A model generated the notes under the pieces. It did not search any database and was not told the DNA's origin. It saw only the letters and a program-made list of their open reading frames with translations. Below, one piece after another: positions 11,593 through 59,610 of a DNA stretch of 64,000 nt. Every line of letters starts with the position of its first letter. Position 1 is the stretch's first letter. Source of the DNA: Mobula hypostoma (Eukaryota); contig NC_086107.1 of assembly GCF_963921235.1 (NCBI RefSeq), forward strand, positions 95,792,001-95,856,000, read 5' to 3'. The position numbers were made by a program, and so were the translations under genes.

Positions 11593-12118
11593 TCCCATTC
11601 TGACATGTCTATCCACGGCCTCCTCTACTGTAAAGATGAAGCCACACTCAGGTTGGAGGAACAACACCTTATATTCCGTCTGGGTAGCCTCCAACCTGAT
11701 GGCATGAACATTGACTTCTCTAACTTCCGCTAGGCCCCACCTCCCCCTCGTACCCCATCTGTTACTCATTTTTATGCACACATTCTTTCTCTCACTCTCC
11801 TTTTTCTCCCTCTGTCCCTCTGAATATACCTCTTGCCCATCCTCTGGGTCACCCCCCCCCCGTCTTTCTTCCCGGACCTCCTGTCCCATGATCCTCTCGT
11901 ATCCCCTTTTGCCTATCACCTGTCCAGCTCTCGGCTCTATCCCTCCCCCTCCTGTCTTCTCCTATCATTTTGGATCTCCCCCTCCCCCTTTCAAATCCCT
12001 TACTCACTCTTCCTTCAGTTAGTCCTGACGAAGGGTCTCGGCCTGAAACGTCGACTGCGCCTCTTCCTATAGATGCTGCCTGGCCTGCTGCGTTCACCAG
12101 CAACTTTGATGTGTGTTG
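11593..12118 (+). mobile_element. 5'-truncated Penelope-like element inserted in a CR1 remnant
   Basis: Encodes the GIY-YIG C-terminus (…RLEEQHLIFRLGSLQPDGMNIDFSNF); flanked by the direct repeat ATCTAAAGACACAT (11579-11592 / 12119-12132). Confidence 0.9.
12021..12056 (+). ncRNA. Minimal type-I hammerhead ribozyme motif (Penelope 3' region)
   Basis: AGTC-CTGACGA-AGGGTCTCGGCCT-GAAA-C-GTC-GACT: core CUGANGA/GAAA/NUH, stem I AGUC/GACU, short stem II, palindromic ACGU stem III. Confidence 0.75.
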
Positions 12119-15100
12119 ATCTAAAGACACATGTTGTATTAAAAGAACAGGCAGGTAGAGGGGTTGGTGTGGCTCTGTTGGGAAGAAACGAAATCAAATC
12201 CTTACATTGAGGTGACATAGATTGGAAGATGTAGAATCCTGTGGGTAGAGTTCAGAAACTGCAAGGATAAAATGACCCTGATGGGAAAATGATGCTGAGA
12301 GATAGTTATAGGGAACAACACAAATGGCAGACGAACTTAATCAGCATGTTGCATCAGCCTTTACTGTGGAAAACACTAGCGGTATGCTAGAAATTCAAAT
12401 GCATGTCAGGGGGCAGAAGTGAGTGTAGTTGCTATTATTAGGAGAAGGTACTTGGGAAGCTGAAAAGTCTGAAAGTAGTTAATTCACCTGGACTGGATGG
12501 ACTACATCCTAGGGCTAAAGAGATTATGAGGGCTTTAGTCATGATTAATAGTGTCTATGTTATCAGAAAGATACTGGCATGGAGAGGAGGTTGGCATTAG
12601 TGTCGTAAGGCTGAAGCCTTATAAGGCATTGGTCAGACTGCACTTGGAGTACTGTGAACAAGTTTGAGCCTCTTTTTGAAGAAAAGGCATGTTGGCATTG
12701 GAGATGGTCCATAGGATGTTCACAAGAATGATTCCGAGAATGGAAGTGATAACATATGAGGAGCGTTTGATGGCCCTGGGCGTGTGCTTGCTGGAGCTTA
12801 GAAGAATGCGGGGGATCTCACTGAACCTATTGCACAGTGAAAGGCCAAGATAGAGTGGATGTTTCCTATAGTGGGTGAGTCTGTGACCAGAGAGCAAAAC
12901 CTCAGAAAAGAGGGATGTCCATTTAGAACAGCGATGAAGGGGAATTTCTCTAGCCAGAGGGTGGTGAATAGGTAGAATTTGTTGCCATAGACAGCTGTGG
13001 AGGGCAAGTCATTGGGTATATTTAAAGAGTAGGTTGATAGGTTCTTGATTAGCCAGGGCATCAAAAGTTATGAGAAGGTATGAGAATGGAAATAATAAAT
13101 CAACCATGATGGAATGGTGGAGCAGACTCGTTGGGTCAACTGGCCTGATTCAGTTCCTGTATCTTAATGTCTTATGGCTGACTGGCAGGAGACAAAGAAT
13201 GGGAATAAAGGGTACCTTTTTTGGTTGGCTAGCGGTGACTAGGGGTGTTCTGCAGAGCAGGTGTTGGGACAGCTTCTTTTCATATTATATGTCAATGATT
13301 TGGATGATAGAATTGATGGCTTTGTGGTGAAGTTTGTGGACAATACAAAGGTAGGTAGAAGGGCAGGTAGTGTTGACGAAGCAGGGTCTCTGCAAAAGGA
13401 CTTAGACAAATTAGGAGAATGCACAACAAAGTGGCAGATGGAATCCAGTGTAGAGAAGTGTATGGTCATGCATTTTGATAGAAGGAATAAAGCAATAATT
13501 ATATTGTAAACAGGGAGAAAATTCAGAAATCAGAGGTGCAAAGGGACTTGAGAGTCTTCATGCAAGATCCCTTTAAGATTAACTTGCAGGTTGAGTCAGT
13601 GGTAAGAAAGGCAAGTATTAGCATTTATTTCTAGAACACGAGAATATAAAAGCAAGGATATAATCCTGAGACTTTACAAGACATTGTTCAGACCACACTT
13701 AGAGTATTGCAAGCAGTTTTGAGCCCCTTAGCTAAGAAAAGATGTGCAGGTATTGGGAAGGGTCCAGAGGAGGTTCATGAGAATGATCCTGGGATTGAAA
13801 GGGTCAACGCATGGGGAGCGTTTGATGGCTCTCGCCTGTACTTTCTGGAGTTTAGAAGAATGGTGGTGGTGGGGGGGGGGGTTGGAATCTCATTGAAAAT
13901 TAACAAATAGTGAAAGGTTGAGATACAGTGGAAGTGGAGAGAATGTTTCCTATAGTGGGGGTGTCGAGAACCAGAGAGCACAGCCTCAGAGTTGAAGGCA
14001 GTCCATTTAGAGCAGATATGTGGAGGAACTTCTTCAGCCAGAAGGTGGTGAAACTGTAGAATTCATTGACACAGATGGATGTGGAGGTCAAGTCTTTGGG
14101 TATATTTAAAGTGGAGGTTGATAGACTCTTGATTAGGAAGGGTGTCAAAGGTTACAAGGAGAGGGCAGGAGAATGGGGTTGAGAGGGATAATCAATCGGC
14201 CATGATGGGATGGTGGAGCAGACTCGATGGGCTGCATGGCCTAATTCTGCTCCTAGGCCTTCTGATCTTATGGTCTTGACAGAGGGCGCAACACTGGACC
14301 CCTCGCATGCAATGTGATTGGACAAGTGAATGAAGTGTCAGAGGGACCATAAGACAGAACAATTCAACACTGGAACAGGGACCTTGCCCCACAATGTTGT
14401 AGTGAAGTTTCTGCCTGCTCAATGTCCCACATCCCTCCATTCTCTGCAGTCTCAGTTATGTATCCCTGTGGATCACAGCTAGTCACCGACCTCTATCCAG
14501 AATATCCCATTGACCACACCCTGTCTTCTACAGACAAGACACTTCCAAGTCCAAACAGCCAAGTCACTGTAGATCCCATGCATGTTAATCTTCTAGATCA
14601 GCTTTCCATGCTGGACCTCGTCAAACACCTTACTAAATTCCATGTGAACAACATCCACAGCTCTACTTTCATCAATCAACTTTGAAAAATGTAATCACAC
14701 TAGGAAGATGTGACTTGCTCTACAGAAAACAAAAATATGCTGACTGTCCCTGATTAGGCCACAATTTTCCAAATGCTCATAAATCCTATCCACAAGAATC
14801 TTTTCCAATAGCTTCCATTCTGATGTGGGAGTCACTGTTCTATAGCTTCCAGGGTTATCCTCATTTCGCTCTGGGAATAATGGAACAACATTAGCTGCTC
14901 ATCGGTCCTTTGGGATGTCACATGTGACTGAAGAGAACATGAAGATCTTGGCCAAGGCCCCAGCAATCTCATCTCTTGCCTCTCTCAGGAGTATATCCCA
15001 TCAGGCCCTGGACACCTATCCACCTTAATGATCATCAAGAGACTCAACACAACTTCTTTCTTCATCTCAAAACACCTCATCATCCACATGCTTCAGATTG

Positions 15101-16340: not shown

Positions 16341-19300
16341 GGTTACAGGGTAATTACCAAGGAACGGGATTAATCTGACAACTAGCTCAGACTTGTCCAA
16401 TCACTAGCCTAACCTTTTGAAATTCTCAGAGGCAGACGTACATTTGTAGGCATTTTGTCAGCCTCCAGTTTCATCTCCTTGCCCAGTTATTTTCCTCTCA
16501 TGACACCCATTTTCAGAGCCCTCATTCCCCTTTACCTTCTGGTTAACAGCTATTTTGGTTTGATTTCATTGCATTTTACTGCAGAGAATATCTGTAACTG
16601 TTTAGCTACAATTAAATCTTTTGAACTGCTCTCCAAATATCATTTATCCAACATCCCACAAACTAATTTCATTACTTAAGCTTAAGACTCACAAAAATGA
16701 TTTTCTATCCATATCTAATTTATAAAGGCTACAGCTTGTAATAGGGCATGGGACCCCCTTAAGCTGCATCACCTGGCTTATCCTCAGTGGTTGAAGGGTC
16801 ATGTCCAGAGAGCCCCTCACTTGGGAGTGCCTCATAATAGAAGACACGTTCTCCACGAACTGTCACACCTAGGTACAGGTTGCAAGGACCAGATCCTATT
16901 TTTCAGTACAAAATAACTTTATCCGAGTGTGGTAATCCAATCACAAACAAAAGAAAACCTGCAGATGTTGTAAATTCGAGCAACACACACAAAATACTGG
17001 AGGAAATCGGCAGACCAGGCAGCAACTAGGAAACTGAAGGATTTCGGCCCAAAACGTCAACTGTACTCTTTTCCTAGATGCTGCCTGGCCTGCCAAGTTC
17101 CTCCAGCATTTTATGTGTGTTTATCCAAGTCTGGGCTGGGCTGACACCAGTCAGCTGCCCAACTTGTTTATTGGCCCATCCATATGAACCAGGTGATATT
17201 TACCATTCACTTGATCTTGATAAATGAGACTGGACATTCAGTAGCTGGGTCAGAATAAATTGAGGAAGCAGCAGGACTTTCCTTGTGTCTCTTTATTGGG
17301 AACCAGTAACAATGATGGGAGCCTCAGGAAGTCTGGTTGTGTTACTGGTGATTGTTGCTTTGTGTAATTCTCAGCTTGTTGTAGGTAAGGTCCATTCAGT
17401 TCCTGGGTACAAATCCTGCTCTGATTATATGGTTTGTCAATCCTATTCTTCTTCACTTTAGTGATGGGTTAATTAAGAATTGAGCTGCATTGGTGTGTTG
17501 TGATTTGCAGGCTGGACTGGATAAGGATGTGAGATTGACTATAAAGCCCAACAATGGCCAGTATAATAGTAGAGCTGCTCCTCTGGGTTCAGCCACAATG
17601 TTCTGTATGTATGGGAAGTGGGCTAGTACAGTAAAACATTTTTACCAAATGTTAACCATTGTACAGTTTGGGCAACTCGCAGTGTGGAGCAATGAACTGA
17701 GCCTTGAACTTGAATGTGTGCACTCAAAAGCCTGCGCAAAAAGAGAGCTTCAAGGGTGTAGGAACCTCAATTGATTCACAGCACAATCAATTGACAGGCA
17801 TGCACAACCACTTGGTTTCATAGATTGGGCCTATACAAAAATGGGTCATCCATTCCATGCTTGTACCTGTGAACACTGATTCCCATTTCCCAGCACTTGT
17901 TTTTTAACTTTTCACTTAACTGCTCATTCAAGCTGCTTGGAAGATTAATTGGGCAGTTTAAATTGCCTCTTGTACATAGCAGCAGCAACTTGTGGCAAAA
18001 ATAGAGATGAGGTTATTTTTGGAAAAATTAGTAGAAGGTGTGGAGGGTTTTGTTCTGTGAGCAGACAAAGCCCTGGTGGGTGAACACCTCAGAAACTGAA
18101 CCAGGTAAGAATATTTTAAAGCAATCCTCTGACCTGATCTTGTAGCTGTAGTTTGTGAAAACTCCCTACTGGAGAACTCTGTAGGTAAAGCAGCTTTTTT
18201 GGGGGGGTGACGGGGAAGATATCCAAGAGAAAAGGGTGGAACAAGGGCCAGTAGGTGATGGGAGGGCCGATTAACAGTGAGAGGATGACAGTAGGTGTGG
18301 GTAAGAGGATGGAGAAAGGGTGACAAGTGGGGGCAGAGTTTAAGGTAGGTGATGATCAGGAAAAATTCTGGCTAATGTGAGCAGGTGGAACAAGATGGAG
18401 AGGGAGATTCAGTGGATAAACTGAGTAGATGGTACTGTAAGGGGAGGGCTGGAAGAGTATGAGAGAGCAGGATTGGGAGAAATTGGAGCACAGTGTAGGT
18501 TACCTGAAGTAGGAAAATTGCAGTGTTCATGTTGTTGGGTTGTAAGTTACTTGGGTAGAATGAGGTTTTCCCGTGGCTTGTTTAGCCTCTCCAAGGTGGA
18601 AGACCGATAGATTAATATGGGAAGGAGACTGAACGGCCACGTGAACAGCTCAAAATGTCCATTATGGACAAAGCACAGGTGCTCCACAAACCAATCTCCC
18701 AGTGTGCTTGGTCCTTACAAATGCCACAAGGCCACATTGTGAGTATTGGAGGAGGCCCCTGGATGCAGAAAAGAGAGAAGATGTAGGGAGAAGTTGCAAG
18801 TGGAAGTGCTGTTGTCAAGGAGGTTCAGTGGGGAGGGCTGAGTGGACCAGGAAATCAGTGGTCACTGCAGAAGGTGCAGATGGGTGGGGAAGGGGAGGAT
18901 ACGGTGGATTTTGTTGTCTTCACCCCTCCTGCAAGTAGTGGTGGTTCGACCAACAGATCAGGGTAGCTGTCCCCAGCTGAGCTGCTGTTCTGTGGTGATG
19001 CTTCCAGGATGTTGATGGTGGAAGATTTGATAATGAGAATCACATTGAATGTCGGCGATTGATGAGAAGACTCCGGAGATGGTCATTGATGGGTAATTCT
19101 GTGCTGTCAGTGTTAAATGCTAGTTATCAATGCCTGAATGTTGCCTAGAGTTTAAAGTACATAGGTGTCTACTGCTTCACTTGTATCTCCCTAGTGTAAA
19201 TATCTGGTCCAAGTGTTCTGGGACTGTTTGCAATCTCTCAATCCCACCCTGAAACTTCAGTCTAGTGACTGGAAATTCCAGCTTGTTATTAGTGCAACAC

Positions 19301-21128
19301 TGCTTTGACATGAGCGCTGTGCTCTCCCCCAGACTACAACATTGTGCCTTACAGTGGAGACTTGTCATGCTTGTAACTGTGGTGTGGTTACGTCCTGCCT
19401 ACTGCCTGTTTGAAACATGGACTGCTCAGACACCTGACTGGATGGTCAGTCCTCATTCTTCAACATCCATTGTGGTTGATATTTTGAGAGAAGGTGAGAC
19501 TTTGCTGATCTTGAAGCATTTGTATTGGTAATGGGCCTGGATTGCAGAGCAATGTTTGACTTGAAGGATCGTATTAATGAAATCCCATCTCTCTGCTTTC
19601 TTCAGTGGACAATGGCACTTTTGTCCTGCCCCATAAATATCCAGAGCCTCATTGCAATTACTTCTCTGAACCACCAGTGGCCGCCTATCAAATGGGGCCC
19701 AGGATTGTTTGCAAGAATGGCCCCTGCATTGAGAAGGTATTGCCAGGGCAGGCTTTCAAGTAAGTGTTGCAAGTCAGAAGAATATTCCCCTTGCTCAACA
19801 AATGTTGGCCAAGTCTTTTGCTAGGCAAAATAATCTGAAATAACTTGTTTTAGTCACTAATTAGACTTTCTTGACCATATTGAATCTTGCATTTTTTTTC
19901 ACATTTGTATTTCGAGGATATAATGATTGAGGAGATCCAGTAACCTGTTAATTCTTAGAGTTAATAAGTGGATATCCAAGATGGAGATCTAATGGCCGCC
20001 TTCACTTCTTGCCTTCTCAGAATTCTCTATGTACTTCTGGATGTATCTGGAAAATCCCTGATTATGACACAGTGGTCTGACTCCATCCTGACAAGATGTG
20101 AGGAAATCTTTCTACAAACTAATTTTGAATGGCTGCTAAAGTGGGAGATTGTTTTTGTAGCCTGACAGAGGACTGAAGGGCTAACTTCTGCACTAAATTG
20201 CCTAGCCATTCTCTGCTGCCAGGGTTGTATGCCATTAATGGAAAACAGTTGATGTTTTGGGCTGAGACCCTTCATCAGGATTCAAAGTCTAGATGAATGG
20301 TCTCGGCCTGAAATGTCAACTGTGTACTTTTTTCCCCTCCATAGATGCTGAGTTCTTCCTTTTGTGTGTGTATGTTGCTTAGATTTCTAGCATCTGCAGA
20401 TTTTCTTGCGTTGTATACCATTTATCAGCCAATGACCTGATGTCTATGGCTTAAAAGTTCATTTCACTGTGCACTGATCCTTAAGGTAGCTTGGGTGGAA
20501 AAGCTGCTGAAGGCAAACATCCCATACCTTTGACTGTAGCTGTAAATAAGAGCAAGTACGGTTTAACCAGGCCGAGATGTTTTGTGATGGTGTAGGGAAG
20601 ATTTATCAGACTGTAGCTATGAATGGGGACTTTAGGCTGGGCTAGGGAGAGGAGACTAAGGAATGCAAAATTTGAAGGAAATTGATCATGTAGAAAACAC
20701 TTTTTTTTTCTTGTACCTTCCCCTACAAGAGCATACATTTGAGTGGTAGGTAGTTTAGAGGGGATCTGACAGGGAATATTTACTTAGAGACACAGAACAG
20801 ACCCTTATGGACCAATGAGCCACAACACCCAGAAACCCTGCTATTCAACACGAGCCTAATCACATGACAATCTCCACAATGGCCAATCAGTACAGCTTTG
20901 GACTGTAGGAGGAAGTCGCAGCACCCGGAGTAAACCCGCATGGTCATGAGAAGAACATGCAAACTCCTTACAGATGTCACCAAAATTGAACTCTGAACTC
21001 TGGAATGCCCTCATCTATGCTACAATGGATGGCCAGGAAAGCACTGCCTGAGATGGGGGTGGAGGCAGAAACAACACAAGCTCTTGAATTATAAGGTAGA
21101 GAAGGTGGATAAACAGGATCAGTATGGA

Positions 21129-21780
21129 GAAACACAAAATGCTGGAGTAACTCGGCAGGTCGGTCAAAATGTATGGAAGGAATAAACAGTTGACACTGGT
21201 GGGGAGAATACAAGCTGGATAAAGGTAGGTGAAACTATGAGGGGAGGGGGGGATGAAGTAAGAAGCTGGGACATGATAGTTGGAAGAAGTAAAGAACTAA
21301 AGTAAAGGAGTGGACCAAGGGAAAAAGGGACACCATGGGGAGGTGATGAGCAAGTGGAAAGGCAGGTTAGAGGAAAACCTGAATGAGGAATAGAAAAGGG
21401 GGAGAGGAATGAAATTACAGGAAGTTGGGAATCTATGTTAATACCATCAGGTTGAAGGCTAACCAGACAATGAGGTGTTGCTCCTCCGATCTGAAAGTGG
21501 CCTCATTGTGACCGTAGAGGAGGCCAAGTACTGACATGTCAGAACGGGAAGCAGAATTAAAATGTTTGGCCCCCACTCACCCACCTTCCCCTCAACCTGG
21601 CTTCACCTGCCAGCTCGTACTCTTTCCCCCACCTTATTCTTGATCCTTTCCCCTTCCTTTCCAGTCCTCGTAAAGAGCCTTGGCATGAAACATTGACTGT
21701 TTCTTCCTTCCCAAAGATGCTGCCTGACCTGCTGAGTTCCTCCAGCATTTTGTATGTGTTGATCAACATTTCCAGCACGT
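21129..21780. mobile_element. Degenerate Penelope-like inverted pair
   Basis: Minus-orientation 3' fragment joined near 21570 to a plus-orientation 3' fragment. Confidence 0.7.
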
Positions 21781-22078: not shown

Positions 22079-23955
22079 CTAAAGAAAAAATAAAGCACTG
22101 GATTATAACAATTAATACTAGAAACCACTGGTTGCATGTAGCAAGCTTCTATCAGAAAGCAATTTCAAGCTGTTGGATTTTATTGCCACTGGTGCAAGGC
22201 CATTACTAATTGTGCCACTGGACATTCCTCACTCAGCTACTCCAATCTGTGAAGCTGTTTCCAGTCCGGGAGTAGCAATATTCATACACATACCACCTTC
22301 TGTTTGAGAGGGGAAAACTTGCATTTGGGCTTTAAATCTTCACCTATCAAAAAGCAACTATCTAGATTGCTTCTTTCCAGCCTATGCCACCTTCCACTGG
22401 GCAGATTTAAAAGCTTAAAAATGCACCATCAGGCTCAAGGACAGCTTTTACCCCATTATACGACTCCCGAACAGACCTCTTGTACAATTTTAAAACTTTC
22501 CCTCAAACTTCCTTGTCATTGACCCTTGCACTTTGCCTGCCTGTGCTGCATTTAACACTATATTCAGCATTGATATTGCTTTACTCTTGCTCTGGTTTGC
22601 AATTCTGCTTGGATGCTTACAAAAGTTTTTCCACTCTCTCAGTACAACATTCCAATTCCCTTTCTGAACTTCTGAGTCCAGCAGATATTCTTGTCTAAAC
22701 TGGCTTTGCACTTAAAACTTTACCACAGAACCCTTTGAAGAGTTGACCTTGCAGCTTTCCTTCCTGGCATTGAGTAGTGATGTTGTTCTTTCTTTGGGCA
22801 CTGTCCCTCAGATGTACAGCTATTTGTCACATCAAGTCAATGTTGGCTTTCTTTGTCCATCTATACTATTCCCATCATATCTTCCTGCCGCTGTAATAGT
22901 GATGGTTCGTCTCATCCTTAGTTACCACCCCATCACCCTCCACATCCAACACATCATCTCCACAGCTTCTGCCATCTTCAAAAGGATCCTACCATCAAAC
23001 GTGTCTTTACCTTACCCCTCCCCACTGCTTTCCCCAGGGGTTGCTCCTTCCGTGATTCCCTTGTCTATTTGTCTCTTCCCACTAATCTCCTTCCAGGCAC
23101 TTATCTCTGCAAACAAAAGAAAATCTGCAGATGCTGGAATTTCAAGCAACACACATAAAAATTGCCGGGGAATGCAGCAGGCCAGGCAGCATCTATAGGA
23201 AGAAGTACAGTCAACGTTTTGGGCCGAGACCCTTTGTCAGGACTAACCGAAAAAAGAGATAGTAAGAGATTTGAAGGTGGCAATGGCAAACAGTTTCTGT
23301 AGAGAAAATTGCCAAAAATAATCATGGTCAAGACCATGATTGCCCATGTCATATGACATGGCACATAATGATGATGAATTTTCTTTGGTGGGGAGGAGAG
23401 GAAACAGAAGAGAGGAGCAGGATGCCTTTCATCTTTTATTTTAAAAGGTCTCCCCTACCCCCTTTGCTCCAAGGAAAAGTCTCTCTCATAACTAATCCAA
23501 GATACCATCCTGGCGAGTTTTCTTTACACTCTCCCCTGTTCAGCATACCCACCTGACATTCTCTTTCTTCTCTCCTCCTCCCTCCCCCCCCCTTTACTCT
23601 AAGATACTTGACCACTCTTTCCTTGCAACCAAACATACTGGGCCCCTAATAAAAATGATTATGTAATGGGGCCTCGTTTGTACACATCTCACTGGAACAT
23701 CATTGAACACATTGTTACTTTAGCAACATAATGGTTCCAGCCACCCGCAATAATTCAGGCAAAGGTATCTGCTCGCTTTCTGCTTCCGCTCACCCATGGT
23801 GCTGGCACTTGCTGTCATCCAGCTTATGGTACAACAGTTTAGTAGTTCCCCTCCCACTGGACCAAAGGTGGCTGAGGGGTTACCTTATAGCGCTGTATAA
23901 ACTTATGAGGGGTACAGATAGGCTGTACCATTCACCCTTTCCCCCGGAGTAAGGT

Positions 23956-40257: not shown

Positions 40258-40471
40258 GTGCGTAAACATCCTTCCATTTCTGTTATGGCACGGTTCGGAA
40301 CTCTGTCCAGTATCCTGAATCGTGCAATACTCCCTCAGTTTCACTCAGAATCAGGCTTAATATCACTGATGTAGATTGTGAAATTTGTTGTTTTGTGGCT
40401 GCAGTACATTGCAATACATGAAAAGACTATAAATTACAATAAGAAATATATATAAAGAATTAATGTAGATA

Positions 40472-42055: not shown

Positions 42056-43214
42056 TGTGAACAGTGGCGGGCTTTTGGGCCGGGTTCTGGTCCCGTGCAG
42101 TGGCCCCGACTCAAAATGTAGAGGCTTGGGATCGGTCAATGCACCGTGGAGCTATCACACCACGGGTCACCGCCAGGCACAGGATGAGCAAGTCAGCTAA
42201 AGACAACATTCATCCAGAGATGGGGCTTTTTAAAAATATCTGAAAGATAGAGAGGGTTTGGGTGGGGATCCAGCTCAGAGGAGTGATAGGGATCAGTGAG
42301 GAGAGGGATAAGGTGGGTAGGTGGTGATGGAGTTAGAGGGCAGGAGGAAGGTAGCTGAAACAGTCAGCTCCAGGTAACAAAGGCACAAATGATGGTTACA
42401 GCAGCAGAGGAAAGGCCAGACAGAGGGAGAAGGAAGGATCTCAGTGATGGAATCATAGCGTTATACAGTACGGAAGCAAGCCCTTTGGCCCAACTGGTCC
42501 ATGTTGCCCCAGGTGACCGTATTCCTCCAAACAATTTGCTATCCATGTACCTGCCCAACTGCCTTTAGAAAGTTGTTATTGTACCTGCCTCAGCCACTTC
42601 CTGACAGCTCATACCATACCAACACACACAAAATGCCGGAGGAAATCTGCTGAGTTTCTCCAGCATTTTGTGTGTGTTGCTCGTATTTCCAGCATCTGCA
42701 GATTTTCTCATTCCATACACTCACTAGCCACTGCTTGAAGAAGTTGCCCCTCAGATCTCTTTTAAATTACTGAAATTAATTCTGTGTCTTCTTGTTTTTG
42801 ATTCCCTTTCCCTGAGAGAGGAAAAGAAACATCCCCCTCATGATTTTATGGACTTCTATAAAGTCACCCTCGGATTCCTACCCTCCAAGAAATAAATGAT
42901 ACTGCTGATGGTGATAATCTCTGCAAACCTCAGCTGGTGCCAGGAGGAGACGGAGTGGGTGGCCCAGGTACAGACTCAATGTGAACTGACAGTCATCTTC
43001 TTGTCACTCCATTCTGATTGCCGAGCTTTTGACATCCAACCTTCAACTCTAAATGCAGGTTGTTCATTCTTCAGTGAAAGGTGTGATCCATAAAGTAATC
43101 CCTGGGGATTTCAGCCTGACATTGGCTTCAGAAGTATTCAATTATCACAGATAATTGATGTCTCCATGAAACCATTTCTCTGTCGCTTTCAATATTCTTC
43201 TCCTCATAGTCTCT

Positions 43215-45186
43215 TTATAGAAGTACAGCACTTAAACAAGCCCTTTGGCCCATCTAGTCCATGCCGTAACCATTTAAGCTGCCTACTCCCATCAACCTGC
43301 AGTGGGATCACAGCCCTCCGTACTCCTACTATCAATATACCTATCTAAACTCTCTTAAACTCTGAAATCAAGCTCGCATGTACCACTTCTGCTGGCGGCT
43401 CATTCCACACTCTCACAGCCATCTGAGTGAAGAAGTTTCCCCTCATGTTCCTCTTAAACTTTTCAGCTTTCACCCTTAACCTATGACCTCTGGTTGTAGT
43501 TACACCTAGCCTCAATGGAATAAGCCTGCTTGCACTTACCCTAGCTGTACTCCTCATAATTTTGTATACCGCTATCAAATCTCCTTTCAATCTTCTACAT
43601 TCTAAGGAATAAAGTCCTAACCTATTCAATCTTTACTTATAACTCAGGTCCTCCAGACACGGCAACGTCCTTGTAAATTTTCTCTGTGCTCTTTCAACCT
43701 TGTTTACATCTTTTCTGTAGGTAGGTGACCAAAACTACACACCATTCTCCAAACTACACCTCACCAGTGTCTTACACAACATCTCCCTGTGACACCACTT
43801 CCAATGAATTTTGGACCTGTATTTCCCGATCCCTTTGTTCCCCCACACTTCTCAATGTCCTACTGTTCACTGTGTATGACCTACCCTGGTTAGTCCTACT
43901 GACGTGCATCATCTCACACTTGTCTGCTTTAAATTCCATCGACTATTTTCAGCCCATTTTCCCAGCTGATGCAGATCCCTCTACAAGCAATGATAGCCTT
44001 CCTTGCTGACCACTATACCACCAATCTTGGTGTCACACACAAATTTGGTGATCCGGTTAACCGCATTAGCATCTGGATCATTGATATAGATGACAGACAA
44101 TAATGGACCCAGCACTGATCCCTACAGCACACTACTAGTCACAAGCCTCCAGTCAGAGAGGCAAACATCTTCTACCACTCTCCAATGTCTAATGTCTAAT
44201 CCAATTTACTACCCCATTTTGAATACCGAGTGACACAAGCTTCTTGACCAACCTCTCATGTGGGAGCTTGTCAAATGCCTTGCTAAAGTTCATGTAGACA
44301 ACATCCACTGCCTTGCCCTCATCTACTTTCTTGGTAACTTGCTCGGAAAACTCTATAAGATTGGTTAGACATGACCTACCATGCACAAAGCCATGCCGAC
44401 TATCCTTAATCAGTCCGTGTATATTCAAATACTTTTATATCCAATCCTTTAGAATACAGTACCTTCCAATAACTTTCCCACAACTGATACCAGACTTGCC
44501 ACCTGAAAATTTTCTGCTTTATGCTTGGAGCCTTTCTTAAACATTGGAACAACATATCCTCCAATCCTCTGGTAAATCTCCCGTCACTAAGGATGATTTA
44601 AGTATCTCTGCTAGGGTCCTGGCAACTTCTGCACTTGCCTCCCATAGGGTTGTCATCCACCCTGATTTGCCTCAGGATAGCAAATACCTCCCCCTCGGTA
44701 GTCTGTACAGGATCCATGAAGTTGATGCCACTTTGCCTCAGTTTCATAGACTCTGTGTCCATCTCCTGAGTAAATACAGATGCAGAAAAAATATTTAAGA
44801 TCTCCCCCATCTGTTTTGGTTTACCATTCTAATCTTCCAGAGGACCAGTTTTGTCCCTTACAGTACTTTTGCTCTTAGTATATCTGTAGAATCCCTTAAG
44901 ATTCTCCTTCACCTTGCCTGGTAGAGCAACATCATGCCTTCTTATAAGTTAAGTCCTGTCGAAGGGTTTTGGCCCAAAACGTCGACTGTACTTTTTTCCA
45001 CAGATGCTGCCTGGCCTGCTGAGTTCCTCCAGCATTTTGTGTGTGTGTTGCTCAGATTTCCAGCATCTGCAGATTTTCACTTGTTTGCCTTCTGGTAGCC
45101 CTCCTGATTTCTTTCTTAAGTATTCTCTTGCATTTCTTATACTCCACAAGCAGCTCATTTATTCCTACCTGCCAATACCTGCTATG
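43215..45186 (-). mobile_element. CR1 LINE fragment
   Basis: HGFVHGRSCLTNLIEFSEQVTKKVDEGKAVDVVYMNFSKAFDKLPH plus the 3' end. Confidence 0.88.
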
Positions 45187-45285
45187 CAAACAACAGGAAT
45201 TCTGCAGATGCTGGAAATTCAAGCAACACACATCAAAGTTGCTGGTGAACGCAGCAGGCCAGGCAGCATCTCTAGGAAGAGGTAC

Positions 45286-45321
45286 AGTCGACGTTTCAGG
45301 CCGAGACCCTTCGTCAGGACT
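45286..45321 (-). ncRNA. Minimal hammerhead ribozyme motif
   Basis: Reverse complement of the same 36-mer as 12021-12056. Confidence 0.75.
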
Positions 45322-47546
45322 AACTGAAGGAAGAGTTAGTAAGAGATTTGAAAGTGGGAGAGGGAGGGTGAGATCCAAAATGATAGGAGAAGACAGGAGG
45401 GGGAGGGATGGAGCCAAGAGCTGGACAGGTGATTGGCAAAGGGGATATGAGAGGATCATGGGACAGGAGGCCCAGGGAGAAAGACAAGCGGCGGGGGGGG
45501 GGGGAACCAAGAGGATGGGCAAGGGGTATAGTCAGAGGGACAGAGGGAGAAAAAGGAGAGTGAGAGAAAGAATGTGTGTATAAAAATAAATAATGGATGG
45601 GGTACGAGGGGGAGGTGGGGCATTAGCAGAAGTTAGAGAAATCAATGTTCATGCCATCAGGTTGGAGGCTACCCAGACGGAATATAAGGTGTTGTTCCTC
45701 CAACCTGAGTGTGGCTTCATCTTTACAGTAGAGGAGGCCATGGATAGACATGTCAGAATGGGAATGGGATGTGGAATTAAAATGTGTGGCCACTGGGAGA
45801 TCCTGCTTTCTCTGGTGGACAGAGCGTAGATGTTCAGCAAAGCGGTGTCCCAGTCTGCGTTGGGTCTCACTAATATATAGAAGGCCACATCGGGAGCACC
45901 GGATGCAGTATATCACCCCAGCCGACTCACAGGTGAAGTGTCGCCTCACCTGGAAGGACTGTCTGGGGCCCTGAATGGTGGTAAGGGAGGAAGTGTAAGG
46001 GCATGTGTAGCACTTGTTCCACTTACAAGGATAAGTGCCAGGAGGGAGATCAGTGGGGAGGGATGGGGGGGACGAATGGACAAGGGAGTCGCGTAGGGAG
46101 CAATCCCTGCGGAAAGCAGAGGGGGTGGGAGGGAAAGATGTGCTTAGTTGTGGGATCCCGTTGGGATCAGCATCCTTCGCTACATCGACGACTGCATTGG
46201 CGCTGCTTTCTGCACGCATGCTGAGCTCGTTGACTTTATTAACTTTGCCTCCAACTTTCACCCTGCCCTCAGGTTTACCTGGTCCATTTCCGACACCACC
46301 CTCCCCTTTCTAGATCTTTCTGTCTCTATCTCTGGAGACAGCTTATCTACTGATGTCTACTATAAGCCTACTGACTCTCACAGCTATCTGGGCTATTCGT
46401 CTTCTCACCCTGTCTCTTGCAAAAACGCCATCCCCTTCTCGCAATTCCTCCGTCTCCGCCGCATCTGCTCTCAGGATGAGGCTTTTCATTCCAGGACGAG
46501 GGAGATGTCTTCCTTTTTTAAAGAAAGGGGCTTCCCTTCCTCCACCATCAACTCTGCTCTTAAACGCATATCTTCCATTTCACGCACATCTGCTCTCACT
46601 CCATCCTCCCGCCACCTCACTAGGAATAGGGTTCCCCTGGTCCTCACCTACCACCCCACCAGCCTCCGGGTCCAACATATTATTCTCCGTAACTTCCGCC
46701 ACCTTCAACGGGATCCCACCACTAAGCACATCTTTCCCTCCCCCACCCCTGCTTTCCTCAGGGATTGCGCCCTATGCATCTCCCTTGTCCATTCGTCCCC
46801 CCCCATCCCTCCCCACTGATCTCCCTCCTGGCACTTATCCGTGTAAGTGGAACAAGTGCTACACATGCCCTTACACTTCCTCCCTTACCACCATTCAGGG
46901 CCCCAAACAGTCCTTCCAGGTGAGGCAACACTTCACCTGTGAGTCGACTGGGGTGATATACTGCGTCCGGTGCTCCCGAAGTGGCCTTTTATATATTGGC
47001 GAGACCCAACGCAGACTGGGAGACCGCTTTGCTGAACATCTACGCTCTGTCCGCCAGAGAAAGCAGGATCTCCCAGTGGCCACACATTTTAATTCCACAT
47101 CCCATTCCCATTCTGACATGTCTATCCACGGCCTCCTCTACTGTAAAGATGAAGCCACACTCAGGTTGGAGGAACAACACCTTATATTCCATCTGGGTAG
47201 CCTCCAACCTGATGGCATGAACATTGACTTCTCTAACTTCTGCTAATGCCCCACCTCCCCCTCGTACCCCATCCGTTATTTATTTTTATGCACACATTCT
47301 TTCTCTCACTCTCTTTTTTCTCCCTCTGTCCCTCTGACTATACCCCTTGCCCATCCTCTTGGTTCCCCCCCCCCCGCCGCTTGTCTTTCTCCCTGGGCCT
47401 CCTGTCCCATGATCCTCTCATATCCCCTTTGCCAATCACCTGTCCAGCTCTTGGTTCCATCCCTCCCCCTCCTGTCTTCTCCTATCATTTTGGATCTTAC
47501 CCTCCCCCTCCTACTTTCAAATCTCTTACTAACTCTTCCTTCAGTT

Positions 47547-47582
47547 AGTCCTGACGAAGGGTCTCGGCCTGAAACGTCGACT
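47547..47582 (+). ncRNA. Minimal hammerhead ribozyme motif (sense to GYS1 intron 4)
   Basis: Identical 36-mer. Confidence 0.75.
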
Positions 47583-47909
47583 GCACCTCTTCCTAGAGAT
47601 GCTGCCTGGCCTGCTGCGTTCACCAGTGGCCATTTCACTTGCCCCTGCATTCCTTTTATTTGTCCTTGCTAATCATTCCCAAATGCTGATTGGTTGCTGG
47701 TCAAAGTTAAAAAAAAAAGCTACCGTGAGTCACAGCCTTTAATACTTGACCAGTGAACCTGTGAATTCCATCCCCTCAAGCTTTTGATCTCAGTAATTGG
47801 TCACTGGTCAATGCTTTAGTCCAGTCAACTCAAGCAATTTCTAATAGAGAACATTGTCACCTGTTTTCACAAGGCCTGATCTATACATTTTATTTAAATC
47901 CCCTCTCAT

Positions 47910-48047
47910 GTCAGTCAGTATCTGTGGAGGGAGAAACAGACAGCTGGTCAGTCAGCGTCTGTGGATGGAGAAACAGACAGCTGGTCAGTCAGTATCTGTG
48001 GAGGGAGAAACAGGCAGCTGGTCAGTCAGTATCTGTGGAGGGAGAAA
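47910..48047 (+). repeat. ~37-bp minisatellite, about 4 copies
   Basis: Unit GTCAGTCAGTATCTGTGGAGGGAGAAACAGACAGCTG. Confidence 0.9.
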
Positions 48048-52433: not shown

Positions 52434-52490
52434 GTAAGAGTGTCTCTTCTATTGTTACTGTCTCTGTGGAGCTGTGGTATTCCTCTAAGT

Positions 52491-52680
52491 CAGGGGTGGC
52501 CAACCTTTTACATTCCATGCATCAATTTTTTCACACATGAGTTCAGATGTGCCATACAACTCTTGTACCCCAACAATTCTTGTAAAAATATGTTAATATA
52601 GAACTTGTACGTGAAAAAATCGCATCTGAACTCGTGCATGAACAGATTGACGCATGGAATGTAAAAGCTGGCCACCCCTG
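52491..52680. mobile_element. hAT (Charlie-like) MITE
   Basis: Long imperfect TIRs CAGGGGTGGCCA.../...TGGCCACCCCTG; 8-bp TSD CTCTAAGT/CTCTAAAT. Confidence 0.85.
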
Positions 52681-53134
52681 CTCTAAATGTCCATCTCCAG
52701 TCTCCTGACTTCACTGTAGACCCTTCAATACATTGCTCCACATGTCAATCCTGTCCAAGGCAGTAATTAATATTTAACAGAGAGCTGGTTGCCAAGTTCA
52801 CAACCTGGTTCTGAATGGCAGTTTGGTTTGTGATTCTTGTTCTCACAGGAAATAATTTTACATAGATTCTCAAGTGCTTTCACAATGTCTGCCTACCTCA
52901 GTGTCGCAAGAGATTCTGCAGATGCTGCTAATCTTGAGCAACACATACAAAGTGCTGGAGGAACTCAGCAGGTCAGCCTGCATCTGTGGTGAGGAATGAA
53001 CAGTCGATGTCAAAATAAGAAATAGAATCAGTTTTATTATCACTGGGGCGTGTCATGAAATTTTTTGTTTTGCAGAAGCAGTACAGTCCAATACATGATG
53101 ATAACACCATAAAATTACAATAAGATGGATAGAC

Positions 53135-53715
53135 TGATAGAGACTTTATTGATCCCAGAGGAAATTGTAGTGTCACAGTGGCATTACAAATGCACAGATA
53201 TAAGTATTAGAAGAGAAGTAGAAAGAATAAAAAATAAAATGTTACCACAAACAGTCTACCAGGAGGGGGTCATCACTTCCCCGGCTATAGGTTGACTCAT
53301 TATAGAGCCTAATGGCCGAGGGTAAGAATGACCTCGTATAGCGCTCTTCGGAGCAGCACAGTTGGCTTGGTCCATTACTAAAAGTGCTCCTCTGTTTAGC
53401 CAAGGTGGCATGCAAAGGGTGAGACACATAGTCCAGACTTGCCAGGATTTTCCGTAGGGTCCTTTGTTCTACGACAACCACCAGTGTGTCCAGTTTGACT
53501 CCTATAACAGAGCCAGCCTTTCTAATGAGTTTATTGAGCCTGTTGGCATCGCCTGTGTTGATGCCATTGCCCCAGCACACCACGGCATAGGAGATTGTAC
53601 TGGCGACAACAGACTGGTAGAACATGTGAAGGAGAAGGCCTGTATACTCCAAAGGGCCTCATTCTCCTCAGGAAGTAGAGACGACTCTGGTCTTTCTTGT
53701 GCACAGCTTCTGTGT
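53135..53715 (-). mobile_element. Rex1/Babar-like LINE 3' fragment
   Basis: FYQSVVASTISYAVVCWG...RLNKLIRKAGSVIG...RSFLPSAIRLYN. Confidence 0.8.
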
Positions 53716-56194: not shown

Positions 56195-56315
56195 CCATTT
56201 GGATTTTGATCTGGATAAGACCCTATATTTCTTCATTGCTGGCCGTTATGAGTTCAGAAACAAAGGGGCCGATATATTCCTTGAGGCCTTAGCACGACTC
56301 AACTATCTCCTACAG
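56195..56315 (+). CDS. GYS1: GYS1 exon 7 (121 nt)
   Basis: [45 protein letters not shown]| and |GTGAG. Confidence 0.97.
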
Positions 56316-56594
56316 GTGAGACCCCTCTCTGACTCTGTGTGAAACAATGTGTGATTCTACTGGTGAGCAGAGGTGGAGGGTACATCTCTCATTATGCCTT
56401 CATTGATCCCGGGAGTAAGAAAAGGAGTCTGGAGAGAAAGACTTCAGCTTTATCTGTAAACAAAGCAGTAACTGGGCAATACTGTGACATGCAAATACAT
56501 CGCAGCAGATTGTCAACAGCAACTCCAAAGCCACCACAGAGAAGGACAAGGACAACTGAGGCCGGGAAGGACCATCACCTGCTAGTTTCCCTAG

Positions 56595-57235
56595 CAAGGT
56601 TGAGGGGGTGAACAGCTTTAAGTTCCCTGGCATACACATCACCGAGGATCTCACATGGTCTGTACGTACCGGCTGTGTGGTGAAAAAGGCACAACAGCAC
56701 CTCTTTCACCTCAGACAGTTGAAGAAGTTTGGTATGGGCCCCCAGATGCTAAGAACTTTCTGTAGGGGCATAACTGAGAGCATTCTGACTGGCTGCATCA
56801 CTGCCTGGTATGGGAACTGTACTTCCCTTAATCACAGGACTCTGCAGAGAGTGGTGCGGACAGCCCGGTGCATCTGTAGATGTGAACTTCCCACTATTCA
56901 GGACACTTACAAAGACAAGTATGTAAAAAGGGCTGAAGAATCATTGGGGACCTGAGTCAGTCCCACCACAAACTGTTCCAGCTGCTACCATCCGGGAAAC
57001 AGTACTGCAGCATAAAAGCCAGGACCAACAGGTTCCGGGCAGCTTCTTCCACCAGACCATCAGACTGCTTAATTCATGCTGATGCAACATATTTCTATGT
57101 TATATTGACTGTCCTGTTGTACATAATATTTATTATAAATTACTATAATTTGCACATTGCACATTTAGACGGAGACGTAACGTAAAGATTTTTACTCCTC
57201 AGGTATATGAGGATGTAAGTAATAAATTCAATTCA
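56595..57235 (+). mobile_element. Rex1/Babar-like LINE 3' fragment
   Basis: SFKFPGIHITEDLTWS...VVKKAQQHLFHLRQLKKFG...ESILTGCITAWYGN. Confidence 0.8.
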
Positions 57236-58335
57236 ATCCATACCCCACAGCACCTTGACTTGGAAACCCTCACCCTTGCTGGGTTTAAATCCTGGAAATT
57301 TTCCTTCCCTCCCCCCCACCTCAAAAACACCATAGGAGCACCTGCACCAGAAGGTCTGTGCCAATGCAAGATGGTGACTCACCACTGCCCCCTTAAGGAC
57401 AGACTGGGATGAAGTAAATGCTGGCCTTGCCCGTGATGAAACAGAACATTGAAAGGAACCAGAAGATCTGCTGAGGAGCTACAACTCATCGAGACATAGA
57501 GTTATACAGCATGAAAACAGGCCTTACAGCCCAGCTGGTCCATGGTGACCAAGATGTTGATTATACTAACCCACATTGGCCCATACCTCTCTAATCTCTT
57601 TCTATCCCTCTACCTGTCCAATTCAGTTTTGTATTTTATAAGTGTTCCTGCCTCAGACACTTCTTCTGGAAACACATTCCAATTACTGTGTGGAAACCAC
57701 GCCCCACATGTCCCTTTGAATCTTTCCCCTCTCACCCTAAACCTATGCCCTCCAGTTACTAATTCCTCAATGTTGGAAAAAAAATTCTGCATTGTGCTCC
57801 AAAATTTTCTTTCTTTCTTTTTCAATCTTTTTATTAATTTCAGCATCATAAACATTACAGAAAATAGATACAGAGCAATTGGGATTATATTATTGATAAT
57901 TAGTTTATACAAGTATAAACTCAATTGACACATAATTAACGACCCTCCCAAAATCTCACAAAGTACAAATATAATATAGGAAAAATATAAAGTGAAAATA
58001 TAAAAATATCATGAAAAAGAAAAATATATATATATACCCCAAAAGAAAAAAATCTAAACCAACTAGAAGAAAACTAAACTAAAGAAAAAAAAAGAAAAAG
58101 AATGGGCTATTATGATACCGCAGATAAGACCATTAGTGTCGTTAACTCTGCTCCTCTCCCCGTATATAGAATAACAAAATAGAATTAGAAAGGGTCAAAT
58201 TACATCATATGAAAGTATTGAATAAATGGTCTCCAATTCTCTTCAAATTTAATAGAAGGGTCGTAAATGACGCTTCTAATTTTTTCTAAATTTAAACGAG
58301 ACATAGTTTGGGAAAACCATTGAAATGTAGGAGGA

Positions 58336-59610
58336 ACATACATCAAAGTTGCTGGTGAACGCAGCAGGCCAAGCAGCATCTGTGTAGGAAGAGGTGCAGT
58401 CGACGTTTCAGGCCGAGACCCTTCGTCAGGACTAACTGAAGGAAGAGTGAGTAAGGGATTTGAAAGTTGGAGGGGGAGATCCAAAATGATAGGAGAAGAC
58501 AGGAGGGGGAGGGATGGAGCCGAGAGCTGGACAGGTGATTGGCAAAGGGGATACGAGAGGATCATGGGACAGGAGGTCCGGGAAGAAAGACAAGGGGGGG
58601 GGTGACCCAGAGGATGGGCAAGAGGTATATTCAGAGGGACAGAGGGAGAAAAAGGAGAGTGAGAGAAAGAATGTGTGCATAAAAATGAGTAACAGATGGG
58701 GTACGAGGGGGTGGTGGGGCCTTAGCGGAAGTTAGAGAAGTCGATGTTCATGCCATCAGGTTGGAGGCTACCCAGACGGAATATAAGGTGTTGTTCCTCC
58801 AACCTGAGTGTGGCTTCATCTTTACAGTAGAGGAGGCCATGGATAGACATGTCAGAATGGGAATGGGATGTGGAATTAAAATGTGTGGCCACTGGGAGAT
58901 CCTGCTTTCTCTGGCGGACAGAGCGTAGATGTTCAGCAAAGCGGTCTCCCAGTCTGCGTTGGGTCTCGCCAATATATAAAAGGCCACATCGGGAGCACCG
59001 GACTCAGTATATCACCCCAGTCGACTCACAGGTGAAGTGATGCCTCACCTGGAAGGACTGTTTGGGGCCCTGAATGGTGGGAAGGGAGGAAGTGTAAGGG
59101 CACGTGTAGCACTTGTTCCGCTTACACGGATAAGTGCCAGGAGGGAGATCAGTGGGGAGGGATGGGGGGGACGAATGGACAAGGGAGTTGTGTAGGGAGC
59201 GATCCCTGCGGAATGCAGAGAGAGGGGGGGAGGGAAAGATGTGCTTAGTGGTGGGATCCCGTTGGAGGTGGTGGAAGTTACGGAGAATAATATGTTGGAC
59301 CCGGAGGCTGGTGGGGTGGTAGGTGAGGACCAGGGGAACCCTATTCCTAGTGGGGTGGTGGGAGGATGGAGTGAGAGCAGATGTACGTGAAATGGGGGAG
59401 ATGCGTTTAAGAGCAGAGTTGATAGTGGAGGAAGGGAAGCCTCTTTCTTTAAAAAAGGAAGACATCTCCCTCGTCCTAGAATGAAAAGCCTCATCCTAAG
59501 AGCAGATGCGGCGGAAACGGAGGAATTGCGAGAAGGGGATGGCGTTTTTGCAAGAGACAGGGTGAGAAGAGGAATAGTCCAGATAGCTGTGAGAGAAATC
59601 AGCTGTGTGA
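58336..59610 (-). mobile_element. Penelope-like element, same young family, inserted in an L1 fragment
   Basis: Near-identical to 46370-47624; 15-bp TSD TGAAATGTAGGAGGA at 58321-58335 / 59611-59625. Confidence 0.92.
58398..58433 (-). ncRNA. Minimal hammerhead ribozyme motif
   Basis: Reverse complement of the identical 36-mer. Confidence 0.75.

Follow-up and report, generated by a model that had tools for sequence, protein, structure and literature searches.

Copies of a Penelope-like element in the window

The window, by which we mean the whole 64,000-nucleotide stretch of Mobula hypostoma DNA that was analysed, carries fragments of a Penelope-like element (PLE) over about 12% of its length. 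In order, the element comprises the end of the reverse transcriptase (RT) part, a CX4CxxC linker, a GIY-YIG endonuclease, a UTR, a putative hammerhead ribozyme (HHR), and two alternative 3′ ends, and the HHR lies ~290 nt downstream of the GIY-YIG ORF. As an earlier note on this DNA had stated, an identical 36-mer occurs at 12021–12056(+), 45286–45321(−), 47547–47582(+), and 58398–58433(−); no extra copies with ≤3 mismatches were found in the window, and there were none in 100 shuffles. No full-length tandem element (pLTR-ORF-pLTR) was present in the window, where all young copies are 5′-truncated and none of the four young motifs has an intact tandem partner.

Copy A (11590–12118, +) retains the last ~48 endonuclease codons, a ~290-nt pyrimidine-rich UTR, the HHR (12021–12056), and a short 3′ end at +98, and is flanked by a 14-bp duplication (11579–11592/12119–12132) sharing three bases with the element. 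Copy D (58335–59595, −) has a stop within the endonuclease, the HHR (58398–58433), and a short 3′ end (+97); its duplication is 15 bp long (58321–58335/59611–59625). Arm B (45186–46163, −) is inverted and 5′-truncated and contains the linker, an endonuclease in which YIG reads YIS, the UTR, the HHR (45286–45321), and a long 3′ end with a ~38-nt tail (45186–45224). Arm C (46174–47626, +) starts at about the RT YIDD motif, is frameshifted between the RT part and the CX4CxxC linker, and continues through the endonuclease (stop at 47244–47246), UTR, and HHR (47547–47582) to an early end at +80. Because 45186–46163(−) and ~46174–47626(+) abut head to head, their motifs probably represent the two arms of one inverted unit, so the four copies of the earlier note, correct as a count of 36-mers, probably correspond to three insertions; a target-site duplication was looked for at this B/C unit and none was found. 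The three young insertions belong to two subfamilies with 2–6% divergence. Mixed AT-rich loose ends were seen at the arm B terminus (45186) in contigs of two sequencing runs, and 11,000–125,000 contig pieces per sequencing run aligned to one 1-kb stretch.

The endonuclease domain matched PF01541 (E = 6.7e-6 in arm C), and its presence together with a YIDD-bearing RT part is characteristic of EN+ PLEs. It bears a CCHH motif: the interval from GIY to YIG contains a pair of cysteines (arm B, GVIYCIRCSRCGLLYIS; arm C, GVIYCVRCSRSGLLYIG), and HFNSTSH follows downstream. The RT part and linker, frameshifted in copy C, form an uninterrupted frame in relatives, P0001 and P0007 among them. The CX4CxxC linker was found between RT and endonuclease in B, C, and D, and the motif was invariant in 11 of 11 aligned proteins. 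Since a CX2–5CxxC linker has been defined for Neptune and described as absent from Penelope and Poseidon (PMC8557442), the element is of the Neptune type, and our first reading, the Poseidon clade, was dropped on sight of this motif. Nematis also has the linker motif; a vertebrate survey found only Neptune and Poseidon. Furthermore, the endonuclease shares 43–46% identity with loci including L019, L031, L040, and L043, whose HHR is the published Acropora Neptune motif. Judged by linker motif and by this likeness, the clade is probably Neptune, which narrows the young Penelope family of the earlier note while leaving its association of the motif with a GIY-YIG ORF of a Penelope-like element in place. 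The nearest named proteins came from Mobula and Hypanus, the best matches ranging from 95% (Mobula hypostoma) to 66% (Rhincodon) identity.

Six older sites had been listed at 3974, ~17035, ~20250, ~23210, ~40540, and 44952, and all six exist, at 3974–4009(−), 17036(+; 5′-truncated within the core), 20247–20282(−), 23209–23244(−), 40538–40573(−), and 44952–44987(+), with a second arm at 20286–20321(+) beside 20247–20282(−). Additional relics, overlooked at first, were located at 3269, 21663, 28875, 35884, 53010, and 60274. The old copy at 3872–4442(−) retains the endonuclease end, UTR, decayed HHR, and long tail; a close older relative (23108–23280, −) has a long tail and a decayed HHR (G8A, G12A, and C17U, with C at 11.1); and an old copy of a second lineage (40471–40575, −) has a decayed HHR and a short end. 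Another old copy (21661–21780, +) has a decayed HHR (21663–21698), and 5′ of it lie its UTR and an inverted endonuclease fragment (21430–21550, −). Shorter still are the old copies at 44947–45088(+), which extends from just 5′ of stem I to the long tail and has an 8-bp duplication; at 60149–60275(−), which begins at about +10 of the HHR and has a long tail; and at 52905–53011(−), which begins at about +28. Short head-to-head pairs occupy 20241–20411 (both arms beginning at stem I and only the right one tailed), 16943–17128 (long end left, short end right, the right arm beginning inside the core), 35811–36000 (with an exact 10-bp duplication; each arm begins inside the HHR, and the left one has the short end, the right one the long end), and, without an HHR, 42619–42709 (short end left, long end right).

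The motif and its conservation

The young motif consists of CUGACGA, an extra A, stem II (GGGU/GCCU) with the loop CUCG, and GAAA, followed by palindromic ACGU, GUC, and stem I (AGUC/GACU). The catalytic core (C3 U4 G5 A6 N7 G8 A9/G12 A13 A14 A15.1/U16.1 H17) is complete in 4/4 young copies, all 12 positions being unaltered, and cleavage is predicted after C17 of GUC, at 12052 (A), 45290 (B), 47578 (C), and 58402 (D). Minimal hammerheads (min-HHRs), described in the pseudo-LTRs of metazoan PLEs by Cervera and De la Peña (2014; PMC4209133), are recognized by an extra nucleotide between 9 and 10.1, a palindromic 15.2–16.2, and the absence of helix III, and are thought to act as dimers; the young motif has the extra nucleotide (A), the ACGU palindrome at 15.2–16.2, and no helix III. 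The word "intact" in the earlier note holds for the core, but not for stem II, which contains two G·U pairs, one of them a G10.1·U11.1 wobble found in 4/4 young copies, whereas 10.1/11.1 is G-C in 28/28 descriptor matches of relatives and C occupies 11.1 in 5/7 old copies. The wobble was rejected as a surprising variant because it occurs in several published min-HHR rows (PMC4209133); the literature passages available contained no direct measurement of its kinetic effect.

Excess conservation of the motif was marginal among the young copies: 0/36 motif columns vs 42/479 other columns were variable (P about 0.04), a statistic affected by the choice of the motif for being identical. A 61-nt identical run also occurs inside the ORF of the young copies. 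CpG sites varied at 0/4 positions within the motif vs 9/11 outside (Fisher p = 0.011). The core mutations ascribed to the older copies were confirmed, with the core changed in 7/7 old copies spanning the whole motif; 8/15 of these changes were CpG-type transitions, and N7, 11.1, and the CpG-decayed G12 were the sole positions at which the old-copy majority departed from the young sequence.

Scanning 93 loci of relatives (40–52% endonuclease identity) with a min-HHR descriptor gave 28 matches, which were distributed downstream of the endonuclease as 22 sense and 0 antisense and upstream as five antisense and one sense; shuffled sequence gave 0 matches in 14.1 Mb. A sense match lay within 1 kb in 20 of the 80 loci having at least 300 nt downstream, and 9/28 matches were identical to the published Acropora digitifera Neptune min-HHR. 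Run on these relatives, the covariation check proposed earlier was borne out, mainly for stem I. In a search without any stem requirement, the stem I pairs formed in 21/23, 20/23, and 20/23 distinct cores, with compensatory changes at all three core-proximal pairs, and the covariation score was 0.60 vs 0.225 (0/500 shuffles) and at most 0.094 when slid; changes in stem II were mostly one-sided, with one pair compensatory. The fold is conserved across distant families, and the ~100 nt 3′ of the motif are likewise conserved between families. The earlier assignment to the minimal type-I hammerheads is upheld by the sense-only matches downstream in relatives, stem I compensation, and agreement with the published consensus. 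The suggested covariance-model search did not bear it out: an Rfam scan at E ≤ 10 gave 15 matches in the window, none of them a hammerhead. Motif pattern scans gave 0 matches in viral contigs and 0 in metagenome contigs, and a protein scan of viral contigs confirmed 0/9 candidates.

Like the min-HHRs of PMC4209133, especially that of Acropora digitifera Neptune, the ray motif combines CUGANGA with one extra nucleotide and a short, G-started stem II; it also shares with them the GAAACGUC palindrome, a 3–4-bp stem I, and a sense-strand position behind the endonuclease, and its element resembles theirs in that 5′-truncated copies carry another HHR on the other strand and that decayed solo copies are numerous. 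It differs in having AGUC/GACU as stem I and two G·U pairs, including 10.1/11.1, in stem II, and in its host, no cartilaginous fish appearing in the accessible part of the published alignment; the UTR is ~290 nt long vs 95–218 nt in relatives, measured there from where the protein match stops. Because the hammerhead class, dimer model, and pseudo-LTR place are already published, the finding is correct but unsurprising; it adds a young, very abundant ray family to the PLEs known to bear minimal hammerheads. A literature search for shark or elasmobranch PLE hammerheads found no devoted paper, which is weak evidence of absence.

Folding, predicted cleavage, and possible role of the motif

A recently active Neptune-type PLE of a batoid (ray) genome probably carries this motif in its pseudo-LTR as a minimal type-I hammerhead. 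Lacking its own helix III, the hammerhead would need either pairing of two copies via ACGU or an element protein that chaperones the fold in order to cut after GUC. Cleavage would be slow and would occur on tandem transcripts of master elements located outside the window. Reverse transcription would initiate ~65 or ~105 nt 3′ of the motif and then copy through it, and copies spanning the cut site would therefore have come from uncut (or religated) RNA. The copies in the window would be dead 5′-truncated products in neutral decay, largely at core CpGs.

In a nearest-neighbour model, the monomer favoured an inactive fold (−10.0 vs −6.0 kcal/mol for the open-core form), as did the dimer (−28.3 vs −9.5 kcal/mol for the active swapped form). 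Predicted stem probabilities in local context did not exceed 0.08 for any of the four copies, a blocking hairpin was predicted between the motif and the upstream pyrimidine tract, the G10.1·U11.1 wobble weakened the predicted stem II (−2.0 vs −3.7), and the folding z-score of the motif was −0.37. Lünse et al. have reportedly worked on dimeric PLE hammerheads. When Xenopus PLE hammerhead dimers were tested, 8/9 failed to cleave. For the anole Poseidon element, cleavage by the HHR requires protein, insertion uses RNA that has not been cut as its substrate, and mutants with a dead HHR still insert in vitro (PMC11167929). No variant in the motif was among the 40 listed from four sequencing runs (214 further), which is not counted as evidence, and no clean splice joint was among the 15 joints listed from four runs (890 further).

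The predicted inactive folds and blocking hairpin could also mean that the motif, though of hammerhead descent, has ceased to cut in this family and either serves the pseudo-LTR in some other way (protein binding, internal promoter, or splice signal) or is a mere passenger. The loss of G10.1-C11.1 fixed in 4/4 young copies, the likewise conserved ~100 nt after the motif, the absence of a 5′ end at the cut site in 24 copies, the insertion of HHR-dead anole mutants, and the success of Naiad PLEs without canonical HHRs are consistent with such a loss. We nevertheless consider it unlikely: 12/12 core positions are kept in the young copies, the old-copy majority departs from them at only the three positions named, and the core persists with a compensated stem I in distant relatives. 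Moreover, the S. mansoni family-1 row is also G·U at 10.1/11.1, and dimers of that family cleaved, if weakly (PMC4209133).

The element also resembles the Anolis carolinensis PLE Poseidon_Ac (PAc; Frangieh et al. 2024, PMC11167929), which likewise carries an HHR in the pseudo-LTR, has two 3′ ends 30–40 nt apart (tail), and makes copies from uncut RNA; PAc inserts into AT-rich targets, and the ray element has mixed AT-rich flanks at its 3′ terminus. Unlike the ray element with its Neptune-type linker, PAc is a member of the Poseidon clade, with an ORF that begins at stem II. An ATG is absent from the young ray motif, and the one at about +52 lies outside any conserved open frame; the possibility that the ORF starts within the HHR or immediately 3′ of it was rejected because reading frames differ among copies. 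Such a high-copy young family offers material for genome-wide measurement of 5′-end clustering at the ribozyme and of the effect of the fixed G10.1·U11.1.

Insertion ends and the short copies

PLEs have been described with 5′ truncation, an inverted 5′-truncated partner, and a 30–40-bp tail at one end, and the copies in the window show 5′ truncation and five head-to-head pairs, with the long end (tail) on one arm only in 5/5. Among 25 matches, 12 had the long 3′ end, six the short, and seven another. The 5′ breakpoints, read by eye, were scattered from −5 to +93 of the motif rather than fixed. They fell between −5 and +32 in 9/24 copies, five of these nine being arms of inverted pairs, and the rate of stopping there was 9/19 vs 1/10 over the adjacent upstream 38 nt (Fisher p = 0.05). 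Copies starting at +33, as templates cut at C17 would give, were rejected (0/24). At the motif's 5′ border, one sequencing run contained 29 contigs with mixed AT-rich loose ends, together with an opposite-strand joint.

The excess of 5′ ends, the share of inverted-pair arms among them, the one-arm tails, and these loose ends and joint together raise the rather improbable idea that the hammerhead shapes the insertion product, beyond trimming the transcript. Reverse transcription of two element RNAs joined by the ACGU dimer might start on the two opposite strands at a single target cut, with a different start site used for each RNA, and the folded or dimerized hammerhead might stall the enzyme, which would produce head-to-head insertions that join within the motif and bear the tail on a single arm. 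If true, this would give PLE hammerheads a role.

The same 5′ ends and loose ends might instead indicate that the ~140-nt ORF-less copies, from HHR start to tail end, constitute a non-autonomous family of their own, resembling retrozymes or SINEs and having one fixed 5′ end, close to the retrozyme-like behaviour suggested in the earlier note. By definition, retrozymes consist of tandemly repeated units that each contain a hammerhead, and they give circular RNAs (Cervera and De la Peña 2020, PMC7229834; Li et al. 2026, bioRxiv 10.64898/2026.07.22.740005). Non-LTR retrozymes, reported from one chondrichthyan genome, resemble the ray copies in their type-I hammerhead, kinship with PLE pseudo-LTRs, and short ORF-less copies. 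However, none of the 10 tandem-repeat rows in the window covers an HHR, and same-strand motif relics lie 1.4–17 kb apart, so the retrozyme proposal is unsupported. In contrast to tandem units, the short copies are single or inverted, with cores damaged or missing in all of them, and their 5′ ends are spread rather than fixed. Both spacer types of the long copies recur in them (by eye), and they share target-site duplications, head-to-head inversions, and the ~38-nt tail on one arm with the long copies. A separate family is therefore very improbable, and the short copies look like ordinary 5′-truncated, often inverted PLE insertions. Finally, a chance hammerhead resemblance inside a repeat, to which the missing Rfam match and the z-score of −0.37 might point, is refuted by the strand- and position-specific matches behind related endonucleases, the stem I pairing and covariation, the match-free shuffled sequence, and the fit to the published consensus.

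Hammerhead motif and its host element

The 36-nt motif, a candidate minimal type-I hammerhead (min-HHR), occurs exactly four times in the window, at 12021 (+), 45286 (−), 47547 (+), and 58398 (−), as the earlier note had claimed, with no further matches at ≤3 mismatches and none in 100 shuffles. A min-HHR descriptor run over the window matched the same four sites and no others. The motif comprises the stem I 5′ strand AGUC, the core CUGACGA, one extra A, and stem II (GGGU/GCCU) with the loop CUCG, followed by GAAA, CG, UC, and the stem I 3′ strand GACU; C17 of the first copy is position 12052. The covariance-model search proposed in the same note did not recover it: the 15 Rfam matches in the window at E ≤ 10 included no hammerhead. 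A profile search identified 25 relics of the 3′ region of the Penelope-like element (PLE) in the window, and every site named previously as a decayed older copy is present.

Each motif belongs to one PLE copy. Copies A (11590–12118) and D (58335–59595) are clean 5′-truncated insertions with target-site duplications of 14 and 15 bp, respectively. Copies B (45186–46163, −) and C (approximately 46174–47626, +, with an early 3′ end) adjoin in head-to-head orientation and probably arose as a single insertion; no target-site duplication was found around B/C. The copies form two subfamilies, A/D and B/C, with 2.1–2.4% substitutions within and 5.3–5.9% between them in the shared region, and coding damage comprises a frameshift in C, an endonuclease stop in D, and a YIG-to-YIS change in B. 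Broken ORFs at 31915–32328, 33646–34149, 41545–42048, 53242–53658, and 56560–56955 resemble the C-terminal parts of LINE reverse transcriptases, possibly CR1/L2-like; LINE-like repeats apparently host insertions A and B and that at 44947. Long inverted repeats at 36302–36461 and 52488–52682, with sub-threshold plant-miRNA Rfam matches, are probably inverted repeat fragments or a small inverted-repeat element.

The assignment to a Penelope-like family with the motif downstream of a GIY-YIG ORF was borne out: the upstream ORF contains this domain (PF01541, E 6.7e-6), and a pyrimidine-rich UTR of approximately 290 nt separates its end from the motif. The longest copy starts at about the reverse transcriptase (RT) motif YIDD. 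Among the 16 longer relatives found (P0001–P0016) were gene models from Mobula hypostoma (95%, continuing into the same UTR), Hypanus sabinus (76–91%), and Rhincodon typus (66%), which makes a ray the most likely source of the window. The RT–endonuclease linker carries CX4CxxC, which all 11 aligned proteins share without change; Craig et al. (2021, PMC8557442) describe the motif in Neptune and Nematis and state that Penelope/Poseidon lack it, and a vertebrate survey lists Neptune and Poseidon only (bioRxiv 10.64898/2026.07.22.740005). Because of this linker, and because the vertebrates surveyed hold only these two clades, we call the PLE of the window Neptune-type on motif grounds.

The PLE ORF makes up part or most of several public ray gene models among P0001–P0016, which would reflect misannotation or exon capture; these models bear the names mucin-2, divergent protein kinase domain 1C, chitinase domain-containing protein 1, or receptor-transporting protein 3-like. 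Splice-acceptor-like signals lie beside the motif (12000–12022; 45320–45341, −) and at approximately +38 to +51 after each motif: the first comprises a word resembling a branch point, a pyrimidine tract, and an AG at stem I, and the second another pyrimidine tract with an AG, then ATG. An intron end at helix I is described for D. virilis (PMC4209133). The AG at stem I is mostly missing in invertebrate relatives, and no spliced joint appeared among the joints displayed in the sequencing-run contigs.

Relatives and covariation

An endonuclease-alignment scan supplied 93 loci, namely the best 80 of 538 confirmed metagenome-contig loci and 13 from genome contigs, in which the descriptor gave 28 hits, with none in 20 shuffled sets (14.1 Mb). 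Downstream of the endonuclease, 22 hits were sense and none antisense; upstream, five were antisense and one sense. A hit lay 95–218 nt behind the endonuclease match at 20 of the 80 loci having at least 300 nt downstream. L018, L027, and L029 each have their own motif again antisense upstream (in L027, it is the family motif), an inverted layout that is also that of B/C. Nine of the 28 hits are identical to the Acropora digitifera Neptune min-HHR (Cervera & De la Peña 2014, PMC4209133).

Cores gathered without a stem requirement gave 23 distinct cases; pairing holds in 21, 20, and 20 of these at the three positions of stem I, and the stem I letters differ per family. We aligned the window motif with 12 of 16 distinct relatives, all preselected by the descriptor, leaving out four whose stem II length or palindrome differed. 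In this alignment, 85.5% of cells were paired, versus 65.0 ± 3.0 in shuffles, and the covariation score was 0.60 versus 0.225 (0 of 500 shuffles), falling to ≤0.094 when partners were slid. The proposed covariation, assessed across the window motif and these distant relatives, consists of compensatory changes at all three core-proximal pairs in stem I and of mostly one-sided changes in stem II, with one pair compensatory. The hammerhead identification is right, and the class is already published; the window motif adds one member to it. The examined part of the published min-HHR alignment (PMC4209133) contains no cartilaginous fish; several of its rows, S. mansoni family 1 among them, have a G·U pair at 10.1/11.1.

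Eleven of the 13 genome-contig loci (L082–L090, L092, and L093) come from one bacterial MAG record with many PLE endonucleases of animal type, in some cases accompanied by min-HHRs, which points to host DNA inside the bin.

Motif conservation and insertion products

Motif identity may weakly exceed what the youth of the copies would give. None of the 36 motif columns is variable, versus 42 of the 479 columns outside it (P about 0.04). Varying CpG sites number 0 of 4 inside versus 9 of 11 outside (p 0.011), or versus 16 of 25 outside when the longer region of B/C/D is used (p 0.03). These figures are suggestive at most because identity was the criterion by which the motif was selected. A 61-nt stretch in the ORF is likewise identical among copies. 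In the seven old copies spanning the motif, CpG-type transitions make up 8 of 15 core changes, as would be expected from neutral decay. The majority sequence of these seven departs from the young motif solely at N7, 11.1 (C in five of seven), and the CpG-decayed G12. One old copy (21132–21195, −) seemingly lacks the hammerhead middle, with the stem I start joined directly to the cleavage triplet.

The suggestion that short ORF-less derivatives are retrozyme-like was rejected within the window. Tandem HHR units are the defining trait of retrozymes, and no tandem repeat in the window contains an HHR; a PLE tail, inverted pairs, and duplications were found instead. Of the 25 3′ ends, 12 are long, 6 are short, and 7 lie elsewhere, and the approximately 38-nt difference between the two groups is the PLE tail (as in PMC11167929). 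Each of five head-to-head pairs has a long end on a single arm, with the exact long/short pattern in three; among the short pairs, one has an exact 10-bp duplication and three have approximate duplications (by eye). Outside these five pairs, an ORF fragment stands head to head with a 3′-end fragment in two more old arrangements, at 37742–38258 and 21430–21780. A 37-bp minisatellite at 47910–48047 (3.7 copies) resembles the segment just past the hammerhead (profile E 0.007) and looks like a ribozyme-free satellite born from the PLE pseudo-LTR.

There is a low probability that the hammerhead itself shapes the insertion product, with ACGU-dimerised RNAs and RT stalling at the HHR yielding head-to-head insertions whose junctions lie inside the motif. 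This reading draws on the 5′ ends and on mixed loose ends at the motif 5′ border. With the motif's first base as +1, 9 of 24 5′ ends lie at −5 to +32 and none at +33; the proportion ending in this zone is 9 of 19, versus 1 of 10 for the 38 nt upstream of it (p 0.05), with all breakpoints read by eye. All 24 listed runs consist of contigs, none recorded as RNA, and their loose ends carry no information on RNA ends. In the four runs examined, with 11,246–125,302 pieces on a 1-kb stretch, loose ends occurred at the PLE 3′ terminus 45186, with mixed, AT-rich flanks in two runs, and at both motif borders (45284 and 45320/45321), the points at which other families diverge; the 5′ border had 29 contigs with mixed loose ends, in one of the four runs.

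Folding and cleavage

Helix III is absent, and a second copy is therefore needed, joined by four pairs via ACGU (PMC4209133). No upstream direct repeat occurs at A, B, C, or D, so none of them has an intact partner in cis with which to cleave as a dimer; the nearest same-strand relic ahead of an intact copy is 1.85 kb off and decayed. Published min-HHR dimers cleave weakly (PMC4209133) and Xenopus dimers in one of nine cases (bioRxiv 10.64898/2026.07.22.740005). The HHR of the anole Poseidon element needs that element's protein to cleave, is not required for insertion in vitro, and shows no ends at its cleavage site in RNA-seq data (PMC11167929).

In the energy model, which omits tertiary and protein contributions, an inactive pairing of core and cleavage strand is favored in the 36-mer (−10.0 vs −6.0 kcal/mol), as is an inactive form of the dimer (−28.3 vs −9.5). 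Once at least 10 nt of the upstream tract is included, the core is predicted to be taken up in a hairpin, with stem probabilities ≤0.03, and in the wider context, these probabilities are ≤0.08 in all four copies. The most likely picture is that the motif is a latent ribozyme. It would be off in the 3′ repeat while reverse transcription runs, and we infer that tandem transcripts of master elements may be trimmed by it. For copies that span the cut site, the sequence implies an RNA template that was uncut or religated.
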